A DNA stretch of 64,000 nt from Candidatus Aenigmatarchaeota archaeon. Its GTDB lineage: Archaea; Aenigmatarchaeota; Aenigmatarchaeia; CG10238-14; SCSR01. Within the stretch, counting starts at the first letter, position 1, and each line of letters starts with the position of its first letter. The DNA is taken from positions 23,308-87,307 of the forward strand of contig JAWCSL010000001.1 in assembly GCA_039090665.1 (NCBI GenBank). Reading direction: 5' to 3'. A program made the translations under genes and the position numbers. The notes under the pieces were generated by a model, which was not told the DNA's origin, searched no databases, and saw nothing but the letters and a program-made list of their open reading frames with translations. Positions 3,090 through 64,000 of this stretch are shown here, one piece after another.

Positions 3090-3135
3090 AAAATCTACAA
3101 AATGACTTAAATATTTAAATTCTATTTGAATTTTT

Positions 3136-7851: not shown

Positions 7852-8014
7852 ATTTTTTAATAATTTTTTAATGTTATAAAGTTTTTTATAATGGTTTAAA
7901 GTTTTTAAACCCTTTTTTTCTTCTCGAATTCAAACCATTCAACAAAAAATTTTAGGTTTGTTTTTTATGCTATGCTCTCAATTTATTTTATTGGTTTTTG
8001 AGAGGAGCGAGAAG

Positions 8015-8344
8015 ATGAGAATTCAAGAAATTTTCAAGAAGTACGACATAAGGGGCTTATTTCCAGAAGAAATCAATTCAAGAGTTGCTTTCAAGCTTGG
8101 AAGAGCTTTTGGAAGTTTTCTTGGCAAAGGTAAAAAAATTGTGGTTGGAAGAGACAACAGGAAAAGCAGCGCGCTACTGAAAAATTCTCTTGTTGATGGT
8201 TTGATTTTAAGTGGTTGTGATGTTATTGACATAGGTCTTTCAACACCAGATATGGTCGATTGGGGTACAAAGAGCTTGAAAGCTGACGAGAGAGCTGATT
8301 TTGAAATCAATAAATTCGACGAGATTATTACATTACTTTTTTGA
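8015..8344 (+). pseudogene. Truncated N-terminal fragment (~109 aa) of a phosphoglucosamine/phosphomannomutase (GlmM/ManB family)
   Basis: MRIQEIFKKYDIRGLFPEEINSRVAFKLGRAFGSFLGKGKKIVVGRDNRKSS…ILSGCDVIDIGLSTPDM matches PGM/PMM domain I. The frame stops before the catalytic Ser loop (GIMITASHNP), and glmS begins 12 nt downstream. Confidence 0.5.
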
Positions 8345-8355
8345 TGGTAGATTTT

Positions 8356-12437: not shown

Positions 12438-12544
12438 GCTGGCGTGGATTAGCCTGGCTAAATCGCGGCGCTCATAGCATCTATGAGCTTTGATAAAGGA
12501 TGAAAGAAACGCCGAGATCGCGGGTTCAAATCCCGCCGCCAGCA
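12438..12544 (+). tRNA. tRNA-Met (anticodon CAT; could also be tRNA-Ile2) with a ~32-nt intron at the canonical 37/38 site
   Basis: The cloverleaf was folded by hand. The acceptor stem is GCTGGCG/CGCCAGC, and the D-arm is GATT…AATC. The anticodon stem-loop is CGGCG-CTCATA[intron GCATCTATGAGCTTTGATAAAGGATGAAAGAA]A-CGCCG. The T-arm is GCGGG-TTCAAAT-CCCGC, the discriminator is A, and no CCA is encoded. Confidence 0.75.
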
Positions 12545-15398: not shown

Positions 15399-15562
15399 CT
15401 GAGTTATATTATTTATTTGCTCATGGGTCTTGGCGTTGGGCTTTTGATCAAGTCAAACAAGACATGAGATGAAATAGCCTATTCTGACTCATGAGATATT
15501 GGCCTGAAGTGAAAGAGCTTCAGGTAGGTTGATTGGTGAAACCTAGAGGTAGGGCCCGCCAA

Positions 15563-17298
15563 TTCTGGTTGATCCCGCCAGAGGCCACTGCTATCCGGCT
15601 TCGACTAAGCCATGCGAGTCGAGAGGGGAAAGCCCTCGGCGCACTGCTCCGTAATACACAGTCAACCTACCCTTAGCTGGGGGATAATCCCGGGAAACTG
15701 GGGCTAATACCCCATAGGTGCTAGGTACTGGAAGGTCCTAGCGCCGAAAGCTCCGGCGGCTAAGGATGGGACTGTGGCCTATCAGCTTGTTGTGGAGGTA
15801 AAGGCTCCACAAGGCGATAACGGGTACGGGCTATGGAAGTAGGAGCCCGGAGATGGACTCTGAGACATGAGTCCAGGTACTACGGTACGCAGCAGGCGCG
15901 AAAACTTCTCAATGCTCGCAAGAGCGAAGAGGGAAGCCGGAGTGCCCTTGCTCTGCAAGGGCTTTTGCGGTCTGAAAACGGGACCGCGAATAAGGGGTGG
16001 GTAAGACGGGTGCCAGCCGCCGCGGTAATACCCGCGCCCCGAGTGGTGGCCACGATTATTGGGCCTAAAGCGTCCGTAGCCGGTCTGGTAAGTCCTCAGT
16101 GAAATCCTCTAGCAAACTAGAGGGCTTGCTGGGGATACTGCCAGACTTGAGACTGGGAGGGGGCAGGGGTACTCCCAGGGTAGGGGTGAAATCCTGTAAT
16201 CCTGGGGGGACCACCTGTGGCGAAGGCGCCTGCCTGGAACAGGTCTGACGGTGAGGGACGAAAGCTAGGGGAGCGATCGGGATTAGATACCCCGGTACAC
16301 GAGGTTGGGTATCTTCTGATTTAAAGATGAAGAAAAATCCCAACTCAAGCTAGGATTTCCTAACTCGTGCGGGAAAGTCCTAGCCGTAAACGATGCCCGC
16401 TTGGTGTTGCAAGCTTCTCGGGAGCTTGCAGTGCCGAAGCGTAGGTGTTAAGCGGGCCGCCTGGGGAGTACGCCCGCAAGGGTGAAACTTAAGGGAATTG
16501 GCGGGGGAGCACACAAGGGGTGGGCGTTGCGGTTCAATTGGATTCAACGCCGGAAATCTTACCAGGGCCGACGGCAGGATGAAGGTCAGTCTGAAGGGCT
16601 TACCAGACGAGCCGAGAGGTGGTGCATGGCCATCGTCAGCTCGTACCGTGAGGCGTGCGCTTAAGTGCGTTAACGAGCGAGACCCACACCCCATGTTGCT
16701 AACTGCTTCTCCGGAAGCAGTGCACTCATGGGGGACCGCTGGCGATAAGCCAGAGGAAGGAGTGGGCGACGGTAGACAGGTAAAAGGCTCAAGACCGATT
16801 CATGTGAAAAAAAGATGAGCATGAATATCGCCCAGAGCCGTACATGTCTTTTACCTGACCGAAGTCCGTATGCCCCGAATGCCCTGGGCCACACGCGACG
16901 CACAATGCGCGCCACAATGGGATGCGACCCCGAAAGGGGAAGCAAAGCCCCTAAAAGCGCGCTCAGTTCGGATCGAGGGCTGTAACTCGTCCTCGTGAAG
17001 CTGGAATCCCTAGTAAGCGAACGTCATCATCGTTCGCTGAATACGTCCCTGCTCCTTGCACACACTGCCCGTCAAGCCAATCGAGCGGAACTCCATCGAG
17101 GCTTGCGATGAGCAAGTCGAGTTGGAGTTCTGTGAGAGGGGCTAATCTTGGGGGTCCAGAAAAAAATAATATGAAAGAATTGGCTTGACTCTGATGTGAT
17201 GATGAGATGGAGGTGAGTTGATTGCTTGTATGGACCTCCCAAGAGCCTAAAGTCGCCACAAGGTAGCCGTACGGGAACGTGCGGCTGGATCACCTCCT
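15563..17298 (+). rRNA. rrs: 16S rRNA (~1736 nt, unusually long; three ~70-90-nt insertions)
   Basis: The 5' end is ATTCTGGTTGATCCCGCCAGAGG and the 3' end is GCGGCTGGATCACCTCCT. The GC-rich block stands out in an AT-rich genome. Insertions relative to the archaeal consensus lie at about 16298-16376, 16776-16863 and 17159-17230. Confidence 0.9.
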
Positions 17299-17525: not shown

Positions 17526-19544
17526 TCAAGCAAGAATAGCATATCTAGCGATCAAAGAAGCAAAGACAGAAGCTGTTAAAGACATGACTGTTATCATTGT
17601 GTTCAAACTTGGTCCTGCTGTGTCCTTGAAAGGATCACCAACAGTATCACCAACAACAGCAGCCTTATGAGCTTCTGAACCTTTTCCACCAAAAGCCCCT
17701 TCTTCTATCAGCTTCTTAGCATTGTCCCAAGCTCCACCAGAATTTGCCATGAAAAGAGCAAAAATTATTCCTGTGATTATACTTCCTGCTAAAAAGCCCG
17801 CTAAAGCCTCTTTTCCCAAAATGAAGCCAACAAGCAAAGGTGCAGCTATAGCAAGCAAACAAGGAAGCATAAGCTCTCTTAAAGCACCTTTAGTTGCTAT
17901 GTCCACGCATTTGGCATAATCAGGTTTAGCTTTTCCTTTCATCAATCCAGGAATTTCTTTAAATTGCCTTCTCACTTCTTCTATCATACGAAAAGCATTT
18001 CTCCCTACTGCCAAAATCAATAAAGCCGAAATCACAGGAGGCATCATGCTACCAATAAAAGTCCCAACTATAACCTTAGGCTCCATCAAGTTTATTGAAA
18101 ACAAACCAGTAGTCAAATCTTTCCTTATTTCAACAACTTCAGCGTAAGCCCCAAGCAAAGCCAAAACTGTTAAAGCTGCAGCACCAATCGCGAAACCTTT
18201 TGTTATTGCTTTTGTTGTATTTCCCAAAGCATCAAGTCTGTCTGTAATTTCCAAGACTTTGCCTTTCAAACCAGCTTGTTCCGCTATTCCTTTTGCATTA
18301 TCGACAATTGGACCATAAGCATCAGAAGAAATTATCATTCCAACTATTGCTAACATACCCACTGCTGCTATAGCCACACCATAAAGATTACTTACACCGA
18401 AAGCCCCTGCAAGATGCCAAGCTGCAAGCATTGCTACACAAATTCCGATGATTGAAGGTACAATGCTCAAGATTCCATAAGAAAAGCCTGAGAGGATGTT
18501 GATAGCAGCTCCTGTTTTTGCAGCTTCTGCTGTTTTTTTCACAGGAGCTTTATCGATTGATGTATAGTAGTTTGTTGTTATTCCTATAATCATGCCAGAT
18601 ATAAGTCCAGCTAAAGTTGGTAAGAGAACACCAAAAGTTTGGTTTCCAAGTTCAAGAGCTTGAATCACAAAAAATGTTAAAATTGCAAAAATAAAACAAG
18701 TGGAAAAGGTTCCAACATTCAACGCAAGATTAGGGTTCTTTTTCTTGGCCAAATTGACGAAAATTAAACCAAGAAGAGAGGAAAAAATCCCAGCAGCTGC
18801 TATCAACAAAGGCAAGAAGATAAAGCTTGGAGCAATTGCTTTCCCAATTATCATGGCAGCTATGATGCTTGCTATGTAAGAATCTATCAAGTCAGCACCC
18901 ATTCCTGCAACATCACCCACATTATCACCCACATTATCAGCAATAACAGCAGGATTTCTTGGGTCATCTTCAGGAATTTCCATTTCCACTTTTCCCACCA
19001 AATCAGCTCCAATATCTGCTGTTTTAGTGTAAATGCCACCACCAGCTTTTGCAAACAAAGCCAAAGCACTTGCACCAAAGCTGAAACCCAAAACAATCTC
19101 AGGATCTTGGTAAATTTGGTATAAAATGCTTATGCCAAGCAAAGCTATGCCAACTATCATTAAACCCATGATGGCCCCACCATAAAAACCAACAGAAAAA
19201 GCTTTTGCTAATCCTTTTCTTGCTGCATTTGTAACCCTAACATTTGTTTTAACTGCTGCCAGCATTCCAAAGTAGCTTGCTATAGCAGTGGAAAAAGAGC
19301 CAAGCAAGTAGGCTAGAGCTATGTCTGGGCTTAAGAAGAGAAAAATAAGAGTTGTCATGATGACAACGAAAATTGCCAAATAAAGATTTTGCCTCTTCAA
19401 GTAAGCTTTTGCTCCCACTTTTATCGCTTCAGAAATTTCTTCCATTTTTTTGGTTCCCGGGCTTTGTTTGCTCACATGGAAATACAAGTAACAAGCTGTG
19501 AAGATCGAAGCTAAGCCTGCGATTGTTGGGATTGAAGCAAACAT
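17526..19544 (-). CDS. hppA: Membrane-bound H+/Na+-translocating pyrophosphatase
   Basis: [36 protein letters not shown] and GGAWDNAKK are H+-PPase signatures, with about 15 TM helices. It lies on the opposite strand between 16S and 23S. Confidence 0.9.
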
Positions 19545-20479: not shown

Positions 20480-20551
20480 GGGCCGGTAGATCAATGGTAG
20501 ATCGCCTCGCTTGCAACGAGGAGGCTCCGGGTTCAAATCCCGGCCGGTCCA
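20480..20551 (+). tRNA. tRNA-Ala (TGC) with G3:U70
   Basis: The acceptor stem is GGGCCGG/CCGGTCC with a G3-U70 wobble, the Ala identity element. The anticodon loop is CTTGCAA. The T-arm is CCGGG-TTCAAAT-CCCGG and the discriminator is A. It sits about 300 nt upstream of the 23S processing stem. Confidence 0.85.
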
Positions 20552-20865: not shown

Positions 20866-24222
<3,357 letters not shown>

Positions 24223-40166: not shown

Positions 40167-41984
40167 CTACCTAAACTTTTCTCTTTTCCACTCTTCTATT
40201 TTTCCCTTCTCCACTGCAGCTCTTCCAAGGAAGCCATGTGTTTCTTCTGGAACCATTAACAATCCTCTTAAAGGATCGTAAGCGTGTTCTTTTATCACAG
40301 TTCTCTGTCTTTCTTCTGATGCTACTTCCTTTACATCTATACCGAAAAATTCAGGGTATTCAATTAGTTTTTCTGGAGGTATATCTTTTTCCAAAAACTT
40401 GATAATCAATTGCAATGAAATCACTGATTGTTGAAAACTTTCTGGTCCACCTCTTTCAAAAATTATGTAACAATCTTTATCTTTACCAAAACCTTTTTGC
40501 CTTAGTTTGTAGTACATTTCATACAAGTATTTTTGTTGGTCTGAACCAACTTCTATTGGTAAGTGGGCTGGGGCTAAAGTTGAAGGCCAACCTGCGTGTA
40601 TTACTCTAACATATTTGCCTCCGTCTTCCGGAAGCAATTCTATAACTTTTCCCGGATCTATTCTTAAGCTAAGCATGTGTTCAAAATCCATAGCAATTGC
40701 AAAAATATTTTTTCCTGCTTGTTTATTTGCTTCTTCAACCAAAAAGTAATACTGATAAGGATTAGCCAACCTAAGCCACTCTTCTATTCCTCTTCCTCCC
40801 ATTGGTGATTCTAAAGCGAAAATCATTCCATCTTCGTCCAAATATTTTTTCGGATCTTCATACTCTTTTCTTGTTGGGAAAAAATGGCCATAAATGTATC
40901 TTGCAGAAACAGCAGGAACCCAAATCTCATAAACTGTCCTAAAGTTGCCATCTTCTATCGTAAGCCTTTCTGGGCTTATCCCTTTTTTCTTCATCCATTC
41001 CTCTACGCTTATACCATCCCTTTTAGCAAAAAATCTTATGCTAGCATTCACTATTTTTTCCCACAAAGGATCTTTGTTTTCTTCCATCCATTTTGCAACG
41101 AAATAGTAAGCCCATCTCTCTGGGCCATAATGCAAATCTCTCGATTGAACCAGCGAAACAACATAATCCACAATATCAACAAAAGTTATTTCCAAAGATC
41201 TTCTTATTCCTTCATCAATCATATTTTTCAAAGCTTCTTCAGCTTCAACATACTTTTTCCCTCTGGATATTTCTTCACTTTGCACCCTGTTCATTATCCT
41301 ATCTTGCAAATATTCTTCAAAAGTTCTTCCTCTCAAGAGCTCGAGCCAGAAAAAATTTTGCGGTTTTATTCCTTTTTCCCTGAAAGCATTTTCTATATCT
41401 TTTTTGTCTATTTGTCCTGTCTCTTTCCCTTTTTCTTTCCAAATATTCATCAAAATCTCAATCATTTCTTTTGATTTGTTTTCTTTGTTTCCGCTAATCA
41501 ACCAATTTAAAAGCCAATTATTTTGAGTTAGAAATTCCCTGAAAGGATTTCCTTGAGGATCGACCAAATCACAAGACTGTAGAGTTCTTTCTAAAAGCCT
41601 GAAAGGTTCTGATTCAGAAGAATGAACTAAAACATATTTTGCTCCTATATCTTTTGAATGTTTCAAAATCAAAATGAGTCTTTCATGAGCCCTCTCATAT
41701 TCCATCTTTATCGCAGAATCGAGCTCAGCAGCTTCAACACCAAAAGCTCTTGTTTCGCTATGAATTCCAAATTCTATTCCAAGTTTTTCCTTAATATCTT
41801 TTTTCATCTTCTTTTCCAGCTCGGGCTCTTCAAATTCCGAAAGCGACTCTAAATCAAGCTGAACAAACTTCACACCTTTCGTTATTCCTGCTTGAGCTTT
41901 CTTGAACAATCCAGCTAGTTGAGGCTTTTCTTCCCCACCAGCAACCCCAAAAGCTCCGGTTGAAACCCCTAAGATATAACCCAT
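40167..41984 (-). CDS. Large hypothetical protein (605 aa), second gene of the cluster
   Basis: A long ORF with no recognisable motif. It begins MGYILGVSTGAFGVAGGEEKP. Confidence 0.55.
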   Translation of the reverse strand: MGYILGVSTGAFGVAGGEEKPQLAGLFKKAQAGITKGVKFVQLDLESLSEFEEPELEKKMKKDIKEKLGIEFGIHSETRAFGVEAAELDSAIKMEYERAHERLILILKHSKDIGAKYVLVHSSESEPFRLLERTLQSCDLVDPQGNPFREFLTQNNWLLNWLISGNKENKSKEMIEILMNIWKEKGKETGQIDKKDIENAFREKGIKPQNFFWLELLRGRTFEEYLQDRIMNRVQSEEISRGKKYVEAEEALKNMIDEGIRRSLEITFVDIVDYVVSLVQSRDLHYGPERWAYYFVAKWMEENKDPLWEKIVNASIRFFAKRDGISVEEWMKKKGISPERLTIEDGNFRTVYEIWVPAVSARYIYGHFFPTRKEYEDPKKYLDEDGMIFALESPMGGRGIEEWLRLANPYQYYFLVEEANKQAGKNIFAIAMDFEHMLSLRIDPGKVIELLPEDGGKYVRVIHAGWPSTLAPAHLPIEVGSDQQKYLYEMYYKLRQKGFGKDKDCYIIFERGGPESFQQSVISLQLIIKFLEKDIPPEKLIEYPEFFGIDVKEVASEERQRTVIKEHAYDPLRGLLMVPEETHGFLGRAAVEKGKIEEWKREKFR

Positions 41985-41994
41985 TTATTCACCT

Positions 41995-43725
41995 CTATGG
42001 AGCACCAAATGAAGATTTTATGAAGTTTACTATCATACCCCAGGCCGCTGCTACTTCACGTAAATAGTATTTTGTTATTCTCTCTTTGAGAGCAAATTCA
42101 TAAGGAATTTTATAAGGAACTTTTGCTCTGAAGAAATTCAATTCTAAACCAAAGAACTCGAAAAATTTTTCAAAAATTTTAGTTATCCTTTCAACAGGAT
42201 TCTCTCCTTTCTCCTTTACTTTTTCCTTTCTTTCTTCTTCAAACTTTTTTGTATACTCTTTCACAAGCTCATCGATATCAACAATTTCTATTCTCTTCTT
42301 TCCCCCATCTTCTTTTTCCAAAACTCCAGCCTCACCTAACATTTGTTTCAAATAAAGTTCAATCTTTTTGTCTTTTACTTCAAGCTCTATCAATCTACCT
42401 ATTATTATATTTTGAGTTTCAAGCCAAGCCGTTAGTCTATCAAACATTAAATCTTCAATTTCAGTTCCATTTGGCAAGCGAATAACAGCTCTTATTACAG
42501 GAATTTCAAAGAACATGAAGTACGGACTAAACACCCAAGCTTCATAGTCTGTAAGACCTGAAACAGATTTTTCAAATCTATTGACAAGTCTTTCTCTTGC
42601 TTTAAAAATCTCTTTAGCAGTAATTTTTATTCCTTTATACTCACTAGAGTTTTCTATAGCTTTAATTATTTTCCTTACAACCTCATCTATAGAAGGCTCT
42701 ACAGGTAAAGCTTTAACCATCCCATCTTTATCTAACAATCCTTCTTCTTTCAATTCTTCTATTTCTTCTGGCGTGAATCCTGCCTCTTCAGCAGGAATTT
42801 TGTCTAAAGGAGTTTCTCTCACAGCTTTGTACTTATCTGGAGCTGCAAAAGGTTTCCAGGCCCAAATGGTAGCAATATCTAAAGACATCGCTTGAGATTC
42901 AGGCTTCCAGAAAGCAGCTCTCTCAAGAAGAGAAGCTATTGCAGGATCGCTAAGTCCATCAACTATGGATTTATATCTTCTTAATGTAGGTTTAAGCATC
43001 TCTTTATATTCTTCATAAGATTTTTTTCTCGCTTCAACTAATCCGATCAAGCTTTTAAACCTTTCTTCCACAGCTTTCTTGAAAAGCTCGTCTCTCCATT
43101 CCTTATAAAGTTTGTTTTTTGTTGCTAGGATTACAGCTTCTGCTTCAGAAACTTTGTGTTTTTCTGCTATTTTCTTTGGTTCAACATCTTCATCATCAAG
43201 CTTCATGAAATCTGCAATAATTGTCGGCCATCTTGCAGCTATAGACCTCAAAGCAATTGGCTGGTTTGGTAAGTCTGTATGAGCATCAACTTGATCTATG
43301 AAAATTGCTTTGAGAGATTGCTCACCTTGTAATCTAAGCTTATCATCTTTCTTTTTCTTACCAACTTCTATCATCTTGTAATAATCCATGAACTCCTTGT
43401 ATTTTCTCAAATCATGTCTCAAGAGCTCTAAGTCCGAAAAAGCTGTGGCTATACTTGCCAAACCAGCTTTTATTATTGCTTCCAACTCTTCTTTTTGTTT
43501 CAGCGTTAGTTGGTAGTATTGTTGAAAAACTGGGCTCACTACTATTTTTTCATCAATTTTTACTCTTTCAAATCCCCACTTTGGAAGCTGGAAAATTAAA
43601 GCCAGAAGAACTCCAGAAGCTTTACCAAGATTTGAGTCTATATCAAGAAAAATGTTACAATCTTTTAGTTGAATGTTAAGGCCGCATCCTGGAGGAATTT
43701 TATCATCTTTCGGATATTCAACCAT
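41995..43725 (-). CDS. Large hypothetical protein (576 aa), first large gene of the cluster
   Basis: A long ORF with no recognisable motif. It lies 10 nt upstream of the next gene. Confidence 0.55.
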   Translation of the reverse strand: MVEYPKDDKIPPGCGLNIQLKDCNIFLDIDSNLGKASGVLLALIFQLPKWGFERVKIDEKIVVSPVFQQYYQLTLKQKEELEAIIKAGLASIATAFSDLELLRHDLRKYKEFMDYYKMIEVGKKKKDDKLRLQGEQSLKAIFIDQVDAHTDLPNQPIALRSIAARWPTIIADFMKLDDEDVEPKKIAEKHKVSEAEAVILATKNKLYKEWRDELFKKAVEERFKSLIGLVEARKKSYEEYKEMLKPTLRRYKSIVDGLSDPAIASLLERAAFWKPESQAMSLDIATIWAWKPFAAPDKYKAVRETPLDKIPAEEAGFTPEEIEELKEEGLLDKDGMVKALPVEPSIDEVVRKIIKAIENSSEYKGIKITAKEIFKARERLVNRFEKSVSGLTDYEAWVFSPYFMFFEIPVIRAVIRLPNGTEIEDLMFDRLTAWLETQNIIIGRLIELEVKDKKIELYLKQMLGEAGVLEKEDGGKKRIEIVDIDELVKEYTKKFEEERKEKVKEKGENPVERITKIFEKFFEFFGLELNFFRAKVPYKIPYEFALKERITKYYLREVAAAWGMIVNFIKSSFGAP

Positions 43726-55022: not shown

Positions 55023-55784
55023 ATGTTCCAAATAGAAAGAGTTAAAACTTTGATTCCTGGATTTGATGAGTTAGTGAAAGGAGGAATCCCAAAAAGAAAT
55101 ATAGTACTGCTTTCAGGAGGTCCGGGAACAGGAAAAAGTATATTTGCACAGCAATTTATCTTCAATGGCTTAAAACAAGGTGAAAGAGGTGTTCTAGTAA
55201 CTTTAGAAGAACATCCTGTACAATTGAGGAGGAACATGCTTGCTTTTGGTTGGGATGTAAAAAAGTTTGAAGAAGAAAACAAGTTTGCTATTGTCGATGC
55301 TTTCACAGGAGGAGTGGGAGAAACAGCGAAAAAGGAAAAATATGTGGTAAGAAGCACTGATGATATACCTGAGCTATTAGATGTTATAAGACAATCCATT
55401 AAAGATATAGGAGCAGAAAGAATTGTAATAGATTCTATTTCAACCCTCTACCTTACAAAACCTGTTCTGGCTAGAGGTGTTTTAATGCAGCTTAAAAGAG
55501 TTATTTCAGGTTTAGGTGCAACAGCCATTTTTGTTTCTCAAGTGAGTGTAACTGAGAGAGGATTTGGTGGGCCTGGAGTTGAGCATGCTGTCGATGGAAT
55601 AATAAGATTAGATTTAGATGAAATTAATGGAGAGCTTGTTAGATCTTTGATAATATGGAAGATGAGAGGCACTGCTCATGATATGCACAGAAGACCTTTT
55701 GAAATAACAGACAAAGGTATAATTGTTGATTCAAAAAAGATTGTGAAGATGAGAGGAGAATTTTCAAAAATTTTGGAGGGATGA
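55023..55784 (+). CDS. KaiC-like RecA-superfamily ATPase
   Basis: [29 protein letters not shown] is the KaiC/RadA-like N-terminus with Walker A. Walker B is RIVIDSIS. Confidence 0.75.
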
Positions 55785-56185
55785 ATATGGATGAAATACC
55801 TTTAAAGCCTGCAGGAAAGGAAGAAATAAGAAAGCTGGAATTATCTTTGATTTTAGGTACTTTATTCAGGCCAGATGTTCTTGAAAGTATAAGAATGGCA
55901 AGCGATAAGGTAACTTGGTTAGATTCTTTAATAGTTGCTGCAGGAGCTTTGGCAAGAGAAAGGGCTGGAATGACTGCATCTAAAATAGCTGAAGAATTGG
56001 GAAGAACAGAACAAACTATAAGAAATCATTTGAATGAGAAAACAGAAGCAGGAAAACTTGTTAAAGCAACTTATAAAAGTTTCTTGAAAGGAGAAAAGTT
56101 AGAAGTTCTAATAACTTCAGAGGCAGAAGAAAAGTTGAAAAAAGTGAAACAAAAGCTTGAAGAAATACTCAAGGAAATTTCTTGA
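55781..56185 (+). CDS. Small HTH-containing protein translationally coupled to the KaiC-like ATPase
   Basis: The ATGA overlap indicates coupling. [20 protein letters not shown] is HTH-like. Confidence 0.4.
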
Positions 56186-56401: not shown

Positions 56402-56786
56402 TTAAATGGATTTTTTCAATTCACAAATTTCTTTCTCCTTTTTCCTCAAGAGATCTTTGAGTATGTAGTTCAGGTTGTAATCTTTTGGCACTTTACCTAT
56501 AACGCGGTTTCCTTTTGGTTCAGCTATGTTAACTATCAATGTTTCTATATCTTTTAAGTACCTAATTTTTTTAATTTCGAAATATAACAAACTTATCCCA
56601 TTTTCCAGCATGTCTATCTCTTAAGTGCCATCTTATTCTCCCATGGAGATTTTTGGTTAATCCAACATAGTAAAGTTCATCCCCCTTGTAAAGAGCATAG
56701 ATCCCAGAATATCCTTTCATCAATTCTTTTAATTTTTCTTCAAATATAGGATCTTCGAGAATACTGCTTGGTAATTTTTTAGACAT
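56402..56786 (-). pseudogene. GIY-YIG nuclease-domain gene split by a frameshift
   Basis: SGIYALYKGDELYYVGLTKNLHGRIRWH is a GIY-YIG motif with the downstream Arg. The C-terminal part …LIVNIAEPKGN (Glu, Asn) continues in the -1 frame. The overlap is near an A7 run. Confidence 0.5.
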
Positions 56787-56924: not shown

Positions 56925-57509
56925 ATGTTTATAAAAGATTTTAGGAAAGAGGATAAACCTTTAGAAAGACTTGTAGAAAAAGGACCGGAAGCTTTAAGCA
57001 ACACTGAACTTTTAGCTATAGCTTTATGGAAGCTTAATAATTGTTCTGTTTTTGAAAAAGCGAGCGAAATTTTAAAGAAGCAAAATGTTAAAAGACTTTT
57101 TGAATGTTCTGTTGGTGAGTTGGAAAATTTGATTGGAGACAAAATTAAAGCTTGTCAAATTGCTTCATGTTTTGAATTGGCTAAAAGAGCTTTCTCTTAT
57201 GTTGAAGAAAAGCCTTTGATTGAAAGTCCAGAAGATGTTTATAGAATTTTAGGCCCGGAAATGCAAGGGTTAAAGCAAGAAGTGGTTAAAGTTGTTTTGT
57301 TGGATTCAAGAAATAGGTTAATTAAAATTGAAACTGTTTCGGTAGGAAGCTTGAATGAAAACTTGGTTCATCCTAGAGATGTTTTTAGAAAAGCTATAGA
57401 AAACAATGCTGCTTCTATTATTTTAGTTCATAATCATCATTCAGGAGATGTTGAAGAGAGCGAAGAGGATATAAAAGTTACTAAAAACATAATAAAAGCT
57501 GCATACTAG
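56925..57509 (+). CDS. radC: RadC-like JAB/MPN-domain protein
   Basis: LSNTELLAIAL is a helix-hairpin-helix-like N-terminus. HNHHSGDVEESEEDIKVTK is the JAMM motif (HNHPSGxxxPSxxD). The protein ends shortly after the motif and is slightly short for RadC. Confidence 0.7.
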   Translation: MFIKDFRKEDKPLERLVEKGPEALSNTELLAIALWKLNNCSVFEKASEILKKQNVKRLFECSVGELENLIGDKIKACQIASCFELAKRAFSYVEEKPLIESPEDVYRILGPEMQGLKQEVVKVVLLDSRNRLIKIETVSVGSLNENLVHPRDVFRKAIENNAASIILVHNHHSGDVEESEEDIKVTKNIIKAAY

Positions 57510-57705
57510 GAATAGAAGTAAAGGATCATATTGTAATATGAGGTAATAGTTTTGTGTTTTTCAAAAGATTACGAATATAATTTTTTCTAAGGAGAATATT
57601 AGTGAAATATCACTCAAAAGAAATAAAAATGATACGAAAATACTGGAAAAATAATCTCGACTTAAATTTTGATAAGTTTTTTAATTTTAACTTATCCACA
57701 TAATC

Positions 57706-59727
57706 CTTTCAATCCTACATTAATCTGATTTTAACGAAAAAACAGTTATATCACTGTTGCGATGACAAAAATCTTTCAATCCTACATTAGTCTGATTTTA
57801 ACATTTTGATATTATTGAAATTTTTGATGAAAAGGAAGTCTTTCAATCCTACATTAGTCTGATTTTAACTCACAACTGCAGCAACTGCCACGAAAGCAAG
57901 TGGATCTTTCAATCCTACATTAGTCTGATTTTAACTACTGATTGGCAAACAGGAGAACTTTTAGGAAAGTACTTTCAATCCTACATTAGTCTGATTTTAA
58001 CCGTTCAAGTCTCCAGCCTCTGCTTTCACCGCATTCTCATCTACTTTCAATCCTACATTAGTCTGATTTTAACTAATCTATAAAAAGTGGTAAAAATAAC
58101 TCTAGGTCTCTAGATCTTTCAATCCTACATTAGTCTGATTTTAACATAAATCTCATGCTTTGGTCCAAGTCAAAACGAAAGATCTTTCAATCCTACATTA
58201 GTCTGATTTTAACTGGCTTTTCTGTTTAAGAATATAATTTGGCTTGCAATAGCTTTCAATCCTACATTAGTCTGATTTTAACTAGTAAAATTGGCGAGAG
58301 AAATGCTTTATGAAGAAAATTCTTTCAATCCTACATTAGTCTGATTTTAACAATATATCTGGAGAGGAAGGCCTGCTTATGCAATCAGCTTTCAATCCTA
58401 CATTAGTCTGATTTTAACCTTTTTATCCTATTGCTAAGCAGCTTTTAAATTGGGTCTTTCAATCCTACATTAGTCTGATTTTAACAAGCAATGTGAATGT
58501 CACGCCAATATTCACTTTAACAGCCTTTCAATCCTACATTAGTCTGATTTTAACTATTTCACAATTAAGTGCGGAATGGAAATTGAAGTTTTCTTTCAAT
58601 CCTACATTAGTCTGATTTTAACAAGTATTTCTTTGCGGGTTTTCATCCCGCAAAACTACTCTTTCAATCCTACATTAGTCTGATTTTAACTAAAGTGACA
58701 AAGCAATGGTGGCTGGGTGATTGGTAAACTTTCAATCCTACATTAGTCTGATTTTAACACTGTTTTTTGGAAGTAGACTGGCGACAACTTTGTCTCTTTC
58801 AATCCTACATTAGTCTGATTTTAACCACATCAGACTGATTGGTTCATCATGAAGATAATAAACTTTCAATCCTACATTAGTCTGATTTTAACCTATGTTT
58901 TTCTTTCCAACTTTTCTGACCCAATCTTGCATGACTTTTTCTTTCAATCCTACATTAGTCTGATTTTAACCCTTTGTAAGTTCAGCTCTTTTGCCAGCTC
59001 ATCTAACTTGCTTTCAATCCTACATTAGTCTGATTTTAACTGGCAGTATGGAGAGAGAAATGAAAGTGAAAACTATAAACTTTCAATCCTACATTAGTCT
59101 GATTTTAACTTTGGATTTGGATACCACATTCATCACACCTTCCATTCTTTCAATCCTACATTAGTCTGATTTTAACAAAAATCATACTGGAGATTGATGA
59201 ATTACTTGCAACATATTGCTTTCAATCCTACATTAGTCTGATTTTAACGTTGTATTTTAGGTTTCCAACTTCTGCAATCAAATTATCTTTCAATCCTACA
59301 TTAGTCTGATTTTAACTAATCAAGAGATGAATATGCTATTCCAACCACATGTGGTCTTTCAATCCTACATTAGTCTGATTTTAACTGTGGAAGGAGATTT
59401 AGATTCTGATGCAGAACTTGATAACTTTCAATCCTACATTAGTCTGATTTTAACTTGTTTGGTGTTTATTATGTGTGTAGAATTCTTGACTCTTTCAATC
59501 CTACATTAGTCTGATTTTAACCTTTGATACAAACAAACAACACGCAAATACAGTTTAAGTTCTTTCAATCCTACATTAGTCTGATTTTAACAAAACTCGA
59601 ACAAGGCCTATTCTCTTACTGCTATAAACTTTCAATCCTACATTAGTCTGATTTTAACTTGAAAAAATCCATCATTGTGTATAATAAAGTTTAAATACTT
59701 TCAATCCTACATTAGTCTGATTTTAAC
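57706..59727 (-). CRISPR. CRISPR array, 30 repeats of 30 nt and 29 spacers of 36-42 nt; the repeat on the transcribed strand is GTTAAAATCAGACTAATGTAGGATTGAAAG
   Basis: The perfect direct repeat CTTTCAATCCTACATTAGTCTGATTTTAAC (plus strand) was counted by hand at 57773, 57840, 57906 … 59698. The distal repeat at 57706 has one mismatch (TAATCTG). The leader side is adjacent to cas2, and the reverse complement ends in ATTGAAAG, typical of type I repeats. Confidence 0.95.
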
Positions 59728-59825
59728 CCAGCCCGAAAGCCAAAATTTTTTCGATTAAAGCCGATTCCTTATATTTAAATCATCATGGATTTATAAAAAG
59801 CTATTTGTTTATAAAGATCCACAAC
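59728..59825 (-). promoter_or_regulatory. Putative CRISPR leader
   Basis: A 98-nt AT-rich segment lies between cas2 and the first full repeat. The degenerate repeat is at the opposite end of the array. Confidence 0.4.
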
Positions 59826-60089
59826 TTAGATAACCAAAGAAGGCTCTGCCTTTTTTATGCCTATATGTTCTTTTTGTAATACCTTGTCTGTTTGAAGTTG
59901 ATAGATAATAACTGAATCCTCATTTGCGTCTATTCTTTCTTTAATTCCAATTTCAACTTTCTTTAGTTCACTTTCAGTCAATTCTCCTTCAAAAACAGAA
60001 TTTTGAATCCAATTCAAATATTGTCTTAGAAATTGACACACTTTATTAACTCTTTCCACCGAAACATCATAAACTATGATTACATACAC
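59826..60089 (-). CDS. cas2: CRISPR-associated endoribonuclease Cas2
   Basis: 87 aa. MYVIIVYDVSVERVNKV… carries the conserved Cas2 N-terminal β-strand with Asp. It is adjacent to cas1. Confidence 0.85.
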   Translation of the reverse strand: MYVIIVYDVSVERVNKVCQFLRQYLNWIQNSVFEGELTESELKKVEIGIKERIDANEDSVIIYQLQTDKVLQKEHIGIKKAEPSLVI

Positions 60090-60090
60090 T

Positions 60091-61098
60091 CTACCACCAA
60101 ATTACAAATGGTTCATATTTTTTAACTCCAAGCAAATGTTTTATGAGCTTATAACACTCTAGTCTAATTAATCTTTGAAAAGATACACTTCTTCCCAAAT
60201 CTCTGTGTTTTATAGTAGTTTTAAGTTTTTCGTCATAGTGCTGTAAAAAAATCTTCTTTCCATTATTGTTAAGAAGAGTGTAGTTCAATTCCTTCATAAA
60301 ATGTTTTTCTTCAATTATTCGTTTGTTAATTAGCTTGAAGATAACCCTATCCGCTAATAAAGGTTTGAAAATTTCACTTAAATCTAAAGCTAAAGAAAAT
60401 CTCCTTTCGAATGGTTCATGTAAATAACTTATGGTTGGATTTAATTGTGTGTTGTAAATTTCTGTTAATATTGTGGAGTAAACCAAAGAATTGCCAAAGC
60501 TAATTAAGCAATTTATCATATTTTCCGGTGGCCTTTTTGTTCTTTTATCAAAATGGAACTTTTCAGGAAAAATTTTGTTAAAGCTTTGGTAATATGTATC
60601 CCAAATATTTCCTTCTATTGCCATAATTGCTGGAATATCATTCTGTTTTTCCAGTTCATTTAAAAGAAATTTAATTTTTTCTATTTCATCTTGCAATTCT
60701 CCTTTTGTTCTTTCATAATATTGTAAATTTTTCACAATATTCTGCCCGCAACCCTCAACAAATTTCTTTGCTAACTCTAACCTTTTCTCCTTGTTTAAAT
60801 AATACTCAACTTGTTTTACTAGTAAATATCCCGAAACCAAAGTTTCTCTTGGATATAAACTACCTTCATAAAAGCCATATTTATTAAAGAAATGAATCGG
60901 CACACCATACTTTGAAAGATAAGAAACTACGCCAGAAGAGAAAGTTACTCTTCCGTGAGCAAAAATTGCATAAATCTTGTTTATCGGCAAAATTTTCTTT
61001 TCTACCTCACCATTTTCATTCTTTTTAATAAAATAAACTGTGTTTTGTTTTCTTTTTAAAATTCCATTGCTAGTAATATAGTAATTTACCTTTCCCAT
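60091..61098 (-). CDS. cas1: CRISPR-associated integrase Cas1
   Basis: 335 aa. It has a Cas1-like layout with conserved E/H/E region candidates (…AIEGNIWDTYY…, …YLHEP…), and its stop abuts the cas2 start. Confidence 0.85.
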   Translation of the reverse strand: MGKVNYYITSNGILKRKQNTVYFIKKNENGEVEKKILPINKIYAIFAHGRVTFSSGVVSYLSKYGVPIHFFNKYGFYEGSLYPRETLVSGYLLVKQVEYYLNKEKRLELAKKFVEGCGQNIVKNLQYYERTKGELQDEIEKIKFLLNELEKQNDIPAIMAIEGNIWDTYYQSFNKIFPEKFHFDKRTKRPPENMINCLISFGNSLVYSTILTEIYNTQLNPTISYLHEPFERRFSLALDLSEIFKPLLADRVIFKLINKRIIEEKHFMKELNYTLLNNNGKKIFLQHYDEKLKTTIKHRDLGRSVSFQRLIRLECYKLIKHLLGVKKYEPFVIWW

Positions 61099-61121
61099 TT
61101 AATTGTTTATAAGTTTGTTAA

Positions 61122-61715
61122 CTATTTATTAATCCAGCATAATTCAAAGTAGCTACATTTTCTACAATACTTTTTCTTTTCTGGTTTTGGTGGTTTAGGT
61201 AAACAAACTATTCTTTTAATTTCTTGAAAAAGTTTTTGTAATTCATTTTCTTTCTCCGGAGTTAGCTTGACTTCAACAATTTTTCTTTTAGATGGATAAT
61301 TGATTATTCCTTCTGCGTTTTCGATCCCTTTCTCATGCTTAAGGTAGTAAAGATAATAAAGCATTTGATAATAGTGAGCCTCTTGAAATTTATCAGATTT
61401 TTTAATGTCATGAAGAATAAGTTTATCTCCCTTTTTGATAAAATCTATAGATATCTTCTGATCTATAAGTATGTCTTTCTCTATATCTTTAAATGCAATT
61501 TCATGTAATATTTTACCTAAAATTACAAGCTCAGATTCATGTTCCTGTGTAACATAATGAGAAAAATACCAAAGTTGTGTTTTACAATGAATGAAATAAC
61601 TCACCTGAACTCCTGTAAACAAAGCCTCTTCTTCAAATATTTTCTGAGAGTTTTGAGAAAAATTGTCTTGCTTCACTAAATCCATACACTTTTCTTGTTT
61701 TTTCTTTAAGCTCAT
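61122..61715 (-). CDS. cas4: CRISPR-associated exonuclease Cas4 (RecB-like nuclease with Fe-S Cys cluster)
   Basis: An N-terminal Cys (FIHCKTQLWY), a D…ILHDIKKSDK (D/ExK-like) motif, QEAHYYQMLYY (QxxxY) and the C-terminal CRKCSYFELC are present. The real start may be MDLVKQ at 61685. Confidence 0.8.
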   Translation of the reverse strand: MSLKKKQEKCMDLVKQDNFSQNSQKIFEEEALFTGVQVSYFIHCKTQLWYFSHYVTQEHESELVILGKILHEIAFKDIEKDILIDQKISIDFIKKGDKLILHDIKKSDKFQEAHYYQMLYYLYYLKHEKGIENAEGIINYPSKRKIVEVKLTPEKENELQKLFQEIKRIVCLPKPPKPEKKKYCRKCSYFELCWINK

Positions 61716-62643
61716 ATGATATTTTTAAATTTACAAGTTTATCTAGTAGTTCTCCGTTTACATATCCATTGAGAAAATAATATAAAAACTTATTCAAAAG
61801 AGAAGATGACAATTCCCTGTATTGTTTATCTTGAATATATGTAGAAAAAATGAATTTTACAATGAAAGGGTAATCTTCTCTTCCAGTTAAATAACCTCCA
61901 TACCATTTTGAAATAAAACTTTTCAATTTTGGAATAAAATACATTTCTTTTTTCTGTTTTGGAAGGTAACAAATTACTAATGTAACATCATCTCTTATGC
62001 CAATTTTTTCGAGTAAGGAGGGTATTCCCAGTTCTTCAACTTGTTTTTTCCAATTTTCTATTCCAAGAGATTCTTTTTTTATCCATGTAACAAATGATGA
62101 AATAAGAATGAAGGAATAAATAAATTCGTTAAGAAGAGGCAAAACCTTTATGCCAATATTGTTCATTATTTTTTTTAAATCAATACCCCCTTTTTCTTTA
62201 CCACTTGGAAAAATTAATAGTTCTTCATTAATTAGATATTCTCTAAATTTACTCCTTATTCTTTCATCCACATTATCTAAATTTACTATGTATTCACCGC
62301 TATAAATTCCAGAAATTATAAGATATAAAAATCTATAAATTTCGTCTTCACTCGGATTTTCTTTTCCAAGGTAGAAATTTGGTGCTTGGTCTGGAGATAT
62401 TATTGTTGGTATGAGCGACGCATCATATTTTTTATCTTCCTTTACACACTTTTCTATCAGTGATTTAAAAATATTTAGCATATTCTTTTCTAATTCACTC
62501 TCATGAACTTTCATTTTCCCTTTAATAATGTAATAACCTTTTCTTAATCTCTGTTGTAATAATCTTCTGACTATTGGTAGAGCATAACTTCTATTACTTT
62601 TTTCCTTTAAGAAATTTTCTAAAAGTTCTTTATAGTTTGTCAT
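61633..62643 (-). CDS. Uncharacterised 336-aa protein encoded between cas3 and cas4
   Basis: An ORF overlapping the cas3 stop by 4 nt (ATGA) and the cas4 5' end. It has no HD, RecA, RAMP or nuclease motif that I can recognise. Confidence 0.5.
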   Translation of the reverse strand: MTNYKELLENFLKEKSNRSYALPIVRRLLQQRLRKGYYIIKGKMKVHESELEKNMLNIFKSLIEKCVKEDKKYDASLIPTIISPDQAPNFYLGKENPSEDEIYRFLYLIISGIYSGEYIVNLDNVDERIRSKFREYLINEELLIFPSGKEKGGIDLKKIMNNIGIKVLPLLNEFIYSFILISSFVTWIKKESLGIENWKKQVEELGIPSLLEKIGIRDDVTLVICYLPKQKKEMYFIPKLKSFISKWYGGYLTGREDYPFIVKFIFSTYIQDKQYRELSSSLLNKFLYYFLNGYVNGELLDKLVNLKISYELKEKTRKVYGFSEARQFFSKLSENI

Positions 62644-64000
62644 ATTATTTCACTCCCTACTTCTCTAAAACCATAAAAACTATTGTAAATTTTGTCTTTT
62701 AAATCTACTATTGGAAGAGCTTTTCTTTCTTCGTCTCTTAAGTATTTGCGAACCCACCATATTGGAACCGGAACACTAACTTCTTTAAATTCTGCTAATA
62801 ATTTTCTTCTTTCATTAAAATTTTTATTTTTGAAGTCCTGACATAGAAGCTCTTCTATACATTTTTTAACTTCTTCGTCCTCTACACATTCAGGAGAAGG
62901 TATGATTAAAGTAGTGAAGCTATCCCTGTAACTTAATATTTTCGCCAATTCTTCTTCTGAAATATCAAGCGAAAAGAAAAATTGAAGGAGTTCTTCAAAT
63001 TGCTCCAAATTAACTTTTTTAGTCTCTCTTTGCAAAATTTCCAATAATTTATCATAAGTATATATTTCATCAAGATTTTTTAAAAGGTCAAACTCACTTT
63101 TTAAGTTATTACTTAATTCTTCAACTATTTTCTTAGCAATACATAATTCATCAGATGTATATGGATAGTATCGCTCATTCTCAATTTTTGGCTTAAAAAT
63201 TTTCACATTTACTTCTTCTGTTTTCACACCTCTTCTATTTACCCTTCCAAATCGTTGAATTAAAGAGGGAAGAGGGGCTAATTCTGTAAACATAAAATCA
63301 TAAGAAACATCTAATGAGACTTCGCATACTTGAGTTGTTATAAGTATGTGGGGTTTTTCTTTTAATTTTTCTATCTCATCCTCTTTTCTTTTTCTATCTT
63401 TATACATAAACCTTGCATGCAAAAGTAAAACATTTTCTTTTCCCACTTCTTTCACCAATTTTTCTGCAATTTCAATGGATTTTTCAACTGTATTTACAAC
63501 AACGATTACTTTCTTACCATCTTTAAAATTCTTAACTATATCATCAATATGGAGATCTAAGTCTTCGTCCAAATACTCGAACAATGCTCTCCTTTTTGCT
63601 TTATATCCATAGGAGAAATCTAGAAAAGAATTCTGAGTTAAATTTAGCTCACTTGCTAAGTATTTTTCTAAACCTTTCGAAAGAGTTGCAGACATAAATA
63701 GAACTTTGAAACTGTATATATTTTGAAATTTCTTAAGAAAGTACGTTAGAAGACTTAACATTAGTGGATTTAATAAATGTACTTCATCTAACACTATACC
63801 TGAATTTCTAAACATTACACGCTTTGTATAATATTTTCCAACCTGTAAAAATGATAGGAGAAATTGATCTACGGTAGTTATTACAAAGGGTTTTATGAAA
63901 TTTTCTATGAAAAACATGTTTTGTAAAAGATCTAAATCTTCTTTTACTTCAGTATCATAGAAATAGAAGTATTTTATCACATTCCTCCCAAAAACGTTTT
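62640..64000 (-). CDS. cas3: Cas3 helicase (partial; N-terminus beyond window edge)
   Basis: Motif Ia is TTVDQ, motif II is LDEVH (DExH), motif III is MSATL and motif VI is LIQRFGRVNRRG, followed by a C-terminal domain. The reading frame remains open to position 64000, and the track's 'M' at 63980 is a GTG. Confidence 0.8.
   Translation of the reverse strand, partial: NVFGRNVIKYFYFYDTEVKEDLDLLQNMFFIENFIKPFVITTVDQFLLSFLQVGKYYTKRVMFRNSGIVLDEVHLLNPLMLSLLTYFLKKFQNIYSFKVLFMSATLSKGLEKYLASELNLTQNSFLDFSYGYKAKRRALFEYLDEDLDLHIDDIVKNFKDGKKVIVVVNTVEKSIEIAEKLVKEVGKENVLLLHARFMYKDRKRKEDEIEKLKEKPHILITTQVCEVSLDVSYDFMFTELAPLPSLIQRFGRVNRRGVKTEEVNVKIFKPKIENERYYPYTSDELCIAKKIVEELSNNLKSEFDLLKNLDEIYTYDKLLEILQRETKKVNLEQFEELLQFFFSLDISEEELAKILSYRDSFTTLIIPSPECVEDEEVKKCIEELLCQDFKNKNFNERRKLLAEFKEVSVPVPIWWVRKYLRDEERKALPIVDLKDKIYNSFYGFREVGSEII

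Follow-up and report, generated by a model that had tools for sequence, protein, structure and literature searches.

A type I CRISPR-Cas locus with a short, oddly placed large-subunit gene in an Aenigmatarchaeota archaeon

Which type I system serves a CRISPR array when the visible cas genes break off within cas3, and the gene that follows cas3 goes by no known name? We analyzed this question in the window, a 64,000-nucleotide stretch of DNA from a small hot-spring archaeon, at the end of which lies a locus that is ordinary except for its short, oddly placed large-subunit gene. We read it as a chromosomal, apparently functional type I CRISPR-Cas locus of Aenigmatarchaeota (DPANN), I-B by its protein families and belonging to a lineage with a split large subunit, and we put the probability of this reading at about 85%. 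On the minus strand, the layout would be (beyond the window: cas6 - cas11-like - cas7 - cas5 -) cas3 - cas8b (short) - cas4 - cas1 - cas2 - leader - 30-repeat array, where the genes in parentheses are predicted. The features within the window are listed in Table 1.

Table 1. Coordinates of the locus features in the window
Feature	Position	Strand	Description
CRISPR array	57706..59727	(-)	30 repeats of 30 nt, 29 unique spacers
Leader	59728..59825	(-)	AT-rich; aligns with the leaders of 4 related loci
cas2	59826..60089	(-)	87 aa, GTG start; PF09827 E=4.4e-22
cas1	60091..61098	(-)	335 aa; PF01867 E=8e-94
cas4	61122..61685	(-)	187 aa; PF01930 E=9e-54
cas8b, short form	61633..62643	(-)	336 aa, between cas3 and cas4
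cas3, 3' part	62640..64000	(-)	last 452 codons; frame open to window edge (63998-64000)

The array, its leader and the adaptation genes

The array consists of copies of CTTTCAATCCTACATTAGTCTGATTTTAAC (plus strand), 29 of them identical, which in crRNA sense read GTTAAAATCAGACTAATGTAGGATTGAAAG. This is the make-up that defines a CRISPR array, with near-identical direct repeats of 23-50 nt and unique spacers of similar length, and 29 identical 30-mers at 66-78 nt spacing rule out a chance origin. We thus confirmed the 30 repeats and the end at 57706 that a first-pass annotation had reported, along with its single degenerate repeat at the trailer end: the copy at 57706-57735, farthest from the cas genes, carries one G-to-A mismatch. 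Its count of 29 spacers also stood, while its length range of 36-42 nt has to be widened, since one spacer (58893-58940) is 48 nt long (range, 36-48 nt; mean, 38.7). In related loci that share this repeat, the spacers measure 35-45 nt, with a single 64-nt interval in addition; the spread in length is a trait of the lineage.

Allowing up to 7 mismatches, we found no further repeat copy in the window, on the plus or the minus strand, and no second tandem array within positions 1-57600. The repeat has weak structure (-3.6 kcal/mol, z = -1.35), and in an Rfam scan by E-value the array region gave a chance snoRNA match alone (E=0.84). Long-period TRF rows (136-140) had raised the possibility of similar spacers; the spacers share words of at most 10 nt by spacer-versus-spacer BLAST, which makes the rows an artefact arising from the repeats together with a few GGAGAG...ATG-like stretches. 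Searches with blastn-short likewise gave no similarity among spacers or between spacers and the rest of the window. A RadC pseudogene adjoins the array trailer. Its in-frame stop suggested TGA recoding, which we rejected; the other window genes keep long open reading frames under the standard code, so RadC is a pseudogene.

The leader abuts cas2 directly, as previously annotated. It bears the marks expected of a leader, being AT-rich, conserved among related loci, and opposite the end with the degenerate repeat. TTTATAA TATA-like boxes lie inside an imperfect inverted repeat (GTTGTGGAT ... ATCCATGA), and the leader terminates in GG at its junction with the first repeat. An alignment of five loci (the window and four relatives) showed a conserved block, AGTYGTGRAT-TTTATAA-...-ATYCACGA. 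On the minus strand, the repeat ends at its 3' end in ATTGAAAG. In one related locus (L011), the only variant repeat is likewise at the distal end. These sequence features point to minus-strand transcription of the array, with the conserved leader beside cas2 as its putative promoter. A sigma-70 promoter scan was set aside because the host is an archaeon.

Adjoining the array is an I-B-type cas4-cas1-cas2 module, with all three genes intact on the minus strand, in agreement with the earlier view that the adaptation side is complete. Cas2 matched TIGR01573 (53 bits) and the PADLOC Cas2b profile (E=8e-34). Cas1 matched TIGR03641, the type I-B Cas1b family, at 474 bits (cutoff, 304), and PADLOC Cas1b (E=1e-141). 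Cas4 matched TIGR00372 (93 bits) and PADLOC Cas4b, and has a C-terminal CX2CX5C motif plus an N-terminal Cys. We placed the start of cas4 at 61685, following the gene calls in two related loci (L001 and L003); the longest open reading frame reaches 61715. The gene shares ~53 nt with the 3' end of cas8b.

cas3 and a short cas8b

That cas3 runs off the window, as first described, is borne out by its frame, which is open to position 64000. The part in the window covers helicase motifs Ic to VI (DEVH, SAT, QRFGRVNR) followed by the C-terminal domain, and it matched PF22590, PF00271, PF00270, and TIGR01587 (cas3_core, 198 bits; cutoff, 102), the last from profile position 80. The presence of this SF2 helicase supports the initial assignment to type I. 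The visible part aligns at 90% identity with residues 249-700 in the 700-aa Cas3 of a close relative (L003), and since the alignment starts at residue 249, ~248 codons with the HD domain and helicase motif I lie outside the window. The corresponding 248 N-terminal residues in L003 include a ...KYHDFGK... motif. In another relative (L006), an N-terminal HD domain is fused to the helicase (TIGR01596, 45.7 bits; cutoff, 43.45), and relatives have a single cas3 open reading frame of 695-730 aa.

The first-pass annotation had overlooked the gene that follows, which is separate from cas3 and overlaps its stop by 4 nt at the start codon. The 336-aa product matched the PADLOC Cas8b profile (E=1.4e-61), the subtype signature, and stops where the profile stops. 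Pfam and NCBIfam gave no match for this protein, nor did Foldseek for its model; a Cas8 fold is nevertheless supported. Public records that name the gene call its product 'hypothetical protein'. On the profile match, we assign it as cas8b, predicted to encode the Cascade large subunit without a Cas11-like C-terminal domain. The effector module had been expected beyond 64 kb; this large-subunit gene lies inside the window. A profile search of 1.84 billion representative proteins recovered only 73 clusters at 50% identity, mostly from DPANN archaea, with others from Bathyarchaeota and Archaeoglobi metagenome-assembled genomes.

Related loci and a candidate stand-alone cas11

An exact-protein look-up returned two short Logan contigs reaching ~100 nt beyond the window, and a genome-contig scan returned two loci. 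The order in L003, a 91% relative, is cas7-cas5-cas3-cas8b-cas4-cas1-cas2-array. All related loci with enough sequence on the upstream side (L004, L006-L008, and L010-L014) have a gene of ~100 aa followed by cas7, cas5, cas3, and a ~330-aa cas8b. The Cas7 of L006 matched the type I-B family TIGR02585 (111 bits; cutoff, 72.75), and in the relatives PADLOC profiles identified Cas5 (CAS-I-B; effector_G5; E=1.8e-20) and Cas6b (E=4.6e-56), and existing profiles also call Cas7b and Cas3b. Beyond 64 kb, the window's locus therefore probably continues with cas5, cas7, a 100-aa stand-alone cas11-like gene, and cas6, a prediction from relatives whose Cas8b is 30-91% identical. The lower end of this range is L011, in which Cas1 is 88% identical and the repeat identical to that of the window, yet Cas8b shares 30% identity. 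By this comparison, effector and adaptation modules appear to have been exchanged independently.

The 100-aa gene was not recognized by Pfam, NCBIfam, or PADLOC, and profile searches of PDB sequences gave nothing meaningful for its product or for the 336-aa protein. The 100-aa protein is modeled as all-helical (pLDDT 93), and its sequence can be aligned with the last 100 aa of a longer Cas8b, P0149 from locus L015 (hhalign probability 99.2%, E=1.3e-19; BLASTP 37% identity, E=9e-15). The genes for P0149 and P0157 (L018) occupy the canonical cas8b position, directly upstream of cas7. Over their first ~300 aa, P0149, P0157, and P0148 match (E = 4e-55 to 4e-72) the PADLOC Cas8b profile that the window protein also matches, and it is the ~100-aa C-terminal domain of these three proteins that the window Cas8b does not have.

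Given this homology between the 100-aa gene and the C-terminal domain of Cas8b, we read the lineage as a split-Cas8b variant of I-B with an I-A-like layout. Tentatively, and at slightly less than even odds, we suggest that the I-B large subunit was naturally split in a small archaeal lineage, leaving the Cas11 domain as a stand-alone gene at the old cas8b position while a ~330-aa Cas8b moved downstream of cas3. Fused and fused-plus-duplicated Cas8b-Cas11 forms are still extant. If the proposal is correct, these loci form a living series connecting I-B, with its internal Cas11b, to the separate small subunit of I-A and I-E. A natural split would also provide independent genomic support for the Cas8b C terminus as a Cas11 module. 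For annotation, the 336-aa gene would become cas8b and the conserved 100-aa gene of the relatives cas11; left uncalled, they make these loci appear to miss both the large and the small subunit.

Activity, subtype and comparison with known systems

In the predicted mechanism, TATA-like boxes in the leader would drive array transcription, and Cas6 would cleave each repeat to leave an 8-nt ATTGAAAG 5' handle at a putative processing site. The crRNA would assemble with Cas7, Cas5, the short Cas8b, and the separately encoded Cas11 into Cascade. Cas8b would read the PAM, and R-loop formation would recruit the HD-helicase Cas3 to degrade target DNA. Cas1-Cas2, together with Cas4, would insert new spacers of ~36-42 nt at the leader-proximal repeat. 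The accepted working of type I systems is unchanged by this; what the locus adds is a DPANN archaeon with a complete adaptation module, very probably a complete type I system, and rapid spacer turnover.

We searched for spacer targets and a PAM, as the first-pass annotation had advised, and found no protospacer in INPHARED, in PLSDB, or for the spacers searched in IMG/VR and JGI data. With the whole array as query, blastn against INPHARED phages and PLSDB plasmids returned chance-level matches only (E >= 0.6). One match, to a Methanothermobacter plasmid, was in four pieces scattered through the array, all falling on a single ~50-nt site that is probably a similar repeat. Exact 22-27-nt words from seven spacers and the array repeat itself were absent from IMG/VR, and two more spacers had no counterpart among JGI metagenome contigs. 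Compared by blastn-short with the remainder of the window and with every retrieved locus, the spacers gave only chance matches of 12-20 nt, so there is no self-targeting. In these searches, then, no spacer had a protospacer, and neither targets nor a PAM support activity. The comparison with L003 does bear on it: the repeat and the chromosomal neighbour (a THUMP methyltransferase, 89% identity) are the same and Cas1 is 98% identical, yet none of its 28 spacers is shared with the window, indicating complete spacer turnover. Judged by this turnover, the locus is apparently active.

The absence of spacer targets would also suit a decaying or incomplete remnant, in which the array, adaptation genes, cas3, and cas8b are left with no Cascade backbone beyond the window and no interference. 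Effector backbone genes are not visible in the window, a Bathyarchaeota relative (L004/L005) has fragmented cas4 and cas1, and the pseudogene sits next to the trailer. We consider decay very unlikely: all five window cas genes are intact with catalytic motifs kept (cas3 as far as the window shows), overlaps join cas3 to cas8b and cas8b to cas4, 29 of 30 repeats are identical, and L003 retains cas7 and cas5 immediately before cas3, and none of its spacers is the same. In many archaea, type I and type III repeats alike end in ATTGAAAG, which leaves room for an array that depends chiefly on a type III effector with genes at another site, an alternative raised in the first-pass annotation. To this we give almost no credence, as the window gave no sign of Cas10, Csm, or Cmr, its large open reading frames without Pfam matches also had no PADLOC match, and none of the related loci contains a type III gene.

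The subtype calls for more care. A I-A-type Cascade with a separate small subunit and a short large subunit after cas3, as in Thermoproteus and Pyrococcus I-A operons, resembles the layout proposed here; a separate cas11 gene has been described in I-A and I-E only (PMC11899642), and in two Archaeoglobi loci (L013 and L014) this effector module occurs together with Csa1, a I-A marker, and an AF_1859-like gene. We nonetheless regard assignment to I-A as unlikely. Neither protein matched the I-A signatures Cas8a (Csa4/Csx8/Csx13) and Csa5 in Pfam, NCBIfam, or PADLOC, Cas8b alone being matched, and all components match I-B profiles (Cas8b, Cas7b, Cas5b, Cas3b, Cas6b, and Cas1b). In relatives, Cas3 is a fused HD-helicase; the split into cas3' and cas3'', typical of I-A though not universal, is not seen there. 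Finally, the stand-alone cas11 is homologous in sequence to the C-terminal domain of canonical-position Cas8b of the same family, so its layout would be derived within I-B. The original I-B label therefore holds for the profiles (Cas1b, Cas2b, Cas4b, and Cas8b) and fails for the canonical layout.

Compared with I-A systems (csa5/cas11a-cas7-cas5-cas3'-cas3''-cas8a; PDB structures 7r2k/7r21 and 9cro), in which cas3 is split, the relatives have a fused cas3, and the likeness to Csa5, Csa4, and Cas8a is at the level of fold, without sequence or profile similarity. Canonical I-B loci are ordered cas6-cas8b-cas7-cas5-cas3-cas4-cas1-cas2 (Haloferax volcanii; Synechocystis Cascade, PDB 8ip0), an order that is usual for the subtype but does not define it, and their Cas11b is translated from within cas8b (PMC11899642). 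In the window, as in every close relative, cas8b is flanked by cas3 and cas4, whereas its canonical place is immediately upstream of cas7; the window gene is short and lacks the Cas11-like C terminus, which the relatives encode separately, as a 100-aa gene upstream of cas7. The fused Cas8b-Cas11 relatives (P0149, P0157, and P0148 of L016/L017) instead have one protein of 411-443 aa, the last ~100 aa of which are homologous to the stand-alone gene, whereas the window form is split. L016/L017 carry the fused gene plus a separate cas11-like gene, which from the sequences looks like an intermediate state.

The CRISPR array and its leader

The array comprises 30 copies of the 30-nt repeat CTTTCAATCCTACATTAGTCTGATTTTAAC and 29 spacers, as the first-pass annotation had read it. 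Twenty-nine of the repeats are identical, and the copy at 57706 differs by a single G-to-A change. We found no extra repeat copies at ≤7 mismatches on either strand of the window and no second tandem array in its first 57.6 kb. The spacers are all different, with a longest word in common of 10 nt, and their G+C content equals that of the window (34.1% and 34.8%). Their mean length is 38.7 nt; the range of 36 to 42 nt reported earlier holds for all but one, which is 48 nt. Related loci have spacers of 35 to 45 nt, plus one 64-nt interval, and the spread of spacer length is a trait of the lineage. The 64-nt interval, against 36 to 45 nt elsewhere in that array (L003, the closest related locus, 6446-8433), may be an extra-long spacer or conceal a badly degenerate repeat. 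Spacer 16 contains a perfect 8-bp hairpin, TTTGCGGG-ATGAAAA-CCCGCAAA, scored as terminator-like by the scan, and had no match among JGI metagenome contigs.

Four signals point to transcription of the array on the minus strand, from the cas2 side. On this strand the repeat reads GTTAAAATCAGACTAATGTAGGATTGAAAG and has the 3' end ATTGAAAG, the 8-nt 5'-handle sequence typical for Cas6-processed repeats of types I-A, I-B, and III. The sole variant repeat is at the cas2-distal end, as it is in the related locus L011. From the cas2 stop to the first repeat runs a 98-nt stretch that can be aligned with the counterpart in four related loci; these leaders have in common the block AGTYGTGRAT-TTTATAA-...-ATYCACGA, an inverted repeat flanking a TATA-like box, and GG are the final bases ahead of the first repeat. 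The repeat RNA is weakly structured (-3.6 kcal/mol, z = -1.35). Thus, the leader adjoins cas2 and the trailer, with its degenerate repeat, lies at 57706, in agreement with the earlier placement.

The inverted repeat (GTYGTGRAT ... ATYCACGA around TTTATAA) directly follows the cas2 stop in five loci: the window, L003 (6345-6395), L006, L010, and L011. Its arms vary by locus yet remain largely complementary (GTGAAG/CTTCAC in L010 versus GTGGAT/ATCCAC in L011), and the element may bind a regulator or be related to integration.

cas genes in the window, including a short cas8b

Positions of the locus and of other features in the window
Feature	Position	Strand	Remark
Large ORFs (four, 576-874 aa)	756-3380; 3136-5226; 40167-41984; 41995-43725		No Pfam match at E ≤ 1e-5, no PADLOC match at E ≤ 1e-3
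tRNA-like	12438-12544		107-nt Rfam tRNA match, 53 bits; no ARAGORN call
Archaeal 16S rRNA	15562-17298		1737 nt; Rfam model 1478 nt
H+-pyrophosphatase	17526-19544	opposite to rRNA
tRNA-Ala	20480-20551
Archaeal 23S rRNA	20872-24215		3344 nt; model 2987 nt
KaiC-like ATPase with small HTH protein, GIY-YIG fragment nearby	55023-56185 and 56571-56786		PF06745, 290 bits (ATPase); ATPase translationally coupled to the HTH protein
RadC/JAB-like	56925-57580		Pfam RadC match to positions 1-95 of 121 only
CRISPR array	57706-59727
Spacer 16	58623-58660
48-nt spacer	58893-58940
Leader	59728-59825
Leader inverted repeat	59780-59825
cas2	59826-60089	minus	PF09827, PADLOC Cas2b
cas1	60091-61098	minus	TIGR03641 type I-B Cas1b, 474 bits (cutoff 304)
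cas4	61122-61685	minus	PF01930, E=9e-54; four cysteines seen in sequence
cas8b (336-aa ORF)	61633-62643	minus	PADLOC PDLC01548
cas3, partial	from 62640	minus	TIGR01587, 198 bits; DEVH, SAT, QRFGRVNR motifs

As noted at first pass, cas3 runs off the window. Its frame is stop-free as far as the edge, and the 452 codons give a gap-free alignment (90% identity) with residues 249-700 of the 700-aa L003 Cas3. By this alignment, about 744 nt of cas3, with the HD domain and helicase motif I, should lie beyond the window.

At its two ends the 336-aa ORF overlaps its neighbours, by 4 nt at the cas3 stop and by ~53 nt at the cas4 start. It had no match in Pfam or NCBIfam but matched the PADLOC profile 'Cas8b; CAS-I-B; effector_LS' end to end (E=1.4e-61). 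An AlphaFold model based on 51 homologues was confident (pLDDT 89.4, pTM 0.90), and Foldseek returned nothing from the PDB. This gene is the Cascade large subunit, cas8b, and therefore one effector gene lies within the window. The effector module had been expected past 64 kb; cas8b was overlooked, and we infer the remainder from relatives. The exact Cas8b sequence occurs in two short Logan contigs only. Homologues are present in MAGs of Aenigmatarchaeota, Pacearchaeota, and Bathyarchaeota. A profile of the family drew only 73 clusters from 1.84 billion representative proteins. PADLOC matched no Cas proteins among the other large ORFs of the window.

Related loci and a predicted stand-alone cas11

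The closest locus, L003 (Aenigmatarchaeota MAG JZ-1_201709_bins_53; Cas8b 91% and Cas1 98% identical), has the order cas7-cas5-cas3-cas8b-cas4-cas1-cas2-array. More distant loci that extend further upstream (L004, L006-L008, L010-L014) all have a gene of ~100 aa, then cas7, cas5, cas3 (695-730 aa), and cas8b (~330 aa), and in L006, L011, and L012 these are preceded, at some distance, by cas6. The window genome probably has similar content past 64 kb. The L006 Cas7 scores above the cutoff of the I-B Cst2/DevR model (111 bits, cutoff 72.75), Cas5 of this locus matches I-B Cas5 models, an HD domain is present at the N terminus of its Cas3 (TIGR01596, 45.7 bits, cutoff 43.45), and its Cas6 matches Cas6b. 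The related loci compared contained no type III genes.

Homologues of the 100-aa gene additionally occur in Nanoarchaeota and Archaeoglobi MAGs. Its product matched nothing in Pfam, NCBIfam, or PADLOC and is modelled as a confident helical bundle (pLDDT 93). Some members of the Cas8b clusters are longer: P0148 (428 aa), P0149 (411 aa), and P0157 (443 aa) all match the PADLOC Cas8b model over their first ~300 residues (E = 4e-55 to 4e-72). Over its last ~100 residues, P0149 is homologous to the stand-alone protein (hhalign probability 99.2%, E=1.3e-19; BLASTP 37% identity, E=9e-15), and the P0149 and P0157 genes lie immediately upstream of cas7, where canonical I-B loci have cas8b. On sequence evidence, which outweighs that from the fold, we assign the 100-aa gene as a predicted Cas11. 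The homology and position of the fused genes suggest that the lineage of the window encodes its Cas11 module separately, at the place that cas8b used to occupy; its truncated cas8b follows cas3. In L016 and L017, a separate cas11-like gene (hhalign 98.9%) is present in addition to a fused Cas8b. In canonical I-B, I-C, and I-D systems, Cas11 arises by internal translation within the large-subunit gene, and a separate cas11 gene has been described for I-A and I-E only (PMC11899642).

Elsewhere in these loci, L011 (11897-16794; Aenigmatarchaeota GCA_039000875.1) has an identical repeat and similar Cas1 (88%), Cas4 (89%), and Cas2 (78%), but its Cas8b and Cas3 are only 30% and 44% identical to those of the window. 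This looks like a module swap, with an apparent recombination boundary between cas8b and cas4. Nucleotidyltransferase (NTP_transf_2/Polbeta) genes recur in or beside cas loci (L006 5264-5931, L003 9183-9830, L004 4832-5248, L016 11426-12010, L018 1969-2568); that of L006 has a HEPN partner, the pair lying between cas6 and cas11.

Chromosomal setting and subtype

The window also contains archaeal 16S and 23S rRNA and housekeeping genes, and the locus is therefore chromosomal. In L003 the repeat is identical and a THUMP methyltransferase (89% identity) is likewise the downstream neighbour, in the same orientation, whereas none of the 28 L003 spacers is found in the window array. This pattern implies that the locus was inherited vertically while its spacers turned over completely, and it argues for active adaptation. 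For the 9 spacers scanned, a search for targets and the PAM yielded no protospacers in phage or plasmid sequences, IMG/VR, or JGI metagenomes, nor did the window itself contain any.

Several neighbouring features were recorded. The interval from trailer to THUMP methyltransferase is 2.9 kb, versus a dissimilar 1.5 kb in L003. Beside the trailer, the RadC/JAB-like gene is disrupted and likely a pseudogene; its C terminus resumes in another frame (LGIEVKDHIVI), followed by TGA and GNSFVFFKRLRI. The small HTH protein weakly resembles the Csa3 wHTH domain (E=9e-5), and a GIY-YIG fragment lies near the KaiC-like/HTH pair. The excess of both rRNAs over their models suggests insertions or introns; the pyrophosphatase and tRNA-Ala genes occupy the 3.5 kb between them. 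The tRNA-like match reads like a tRNA in which a ~35-nt intron comes after a CAT anticodon. One of the first two large ORFs may be spurious, since they overlap on opposite strands.

The first-pass reading was of a real locus and essentially correct, subject to three corrections: the 48-nt spacer, the presence of cas8b in the window, and the layout, atypical for I-B, with its split Cas8b. As a locus of adaptive immunity it is ordinary, although its host is uncommon and it comes from a modestly unusual variant lineage; the kind is already known, since its Cas8b profile exists in a public library. By protein families we would class it under I-B, in an atypical lineage with a split Cas8b. Its operon logic, with a separate small subunit and a short large subunit after cas3, resembles I-A, and the Archaeoglobi relatives even combine this effector module with an adaptation module containing Csa1. 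Unlike I-A, however, it lacks the Cas8a and Csa5 sequence signatures and its Cas3 is fused; unlike canonical I-B, its Cas8b is split and its gene layout atypical.
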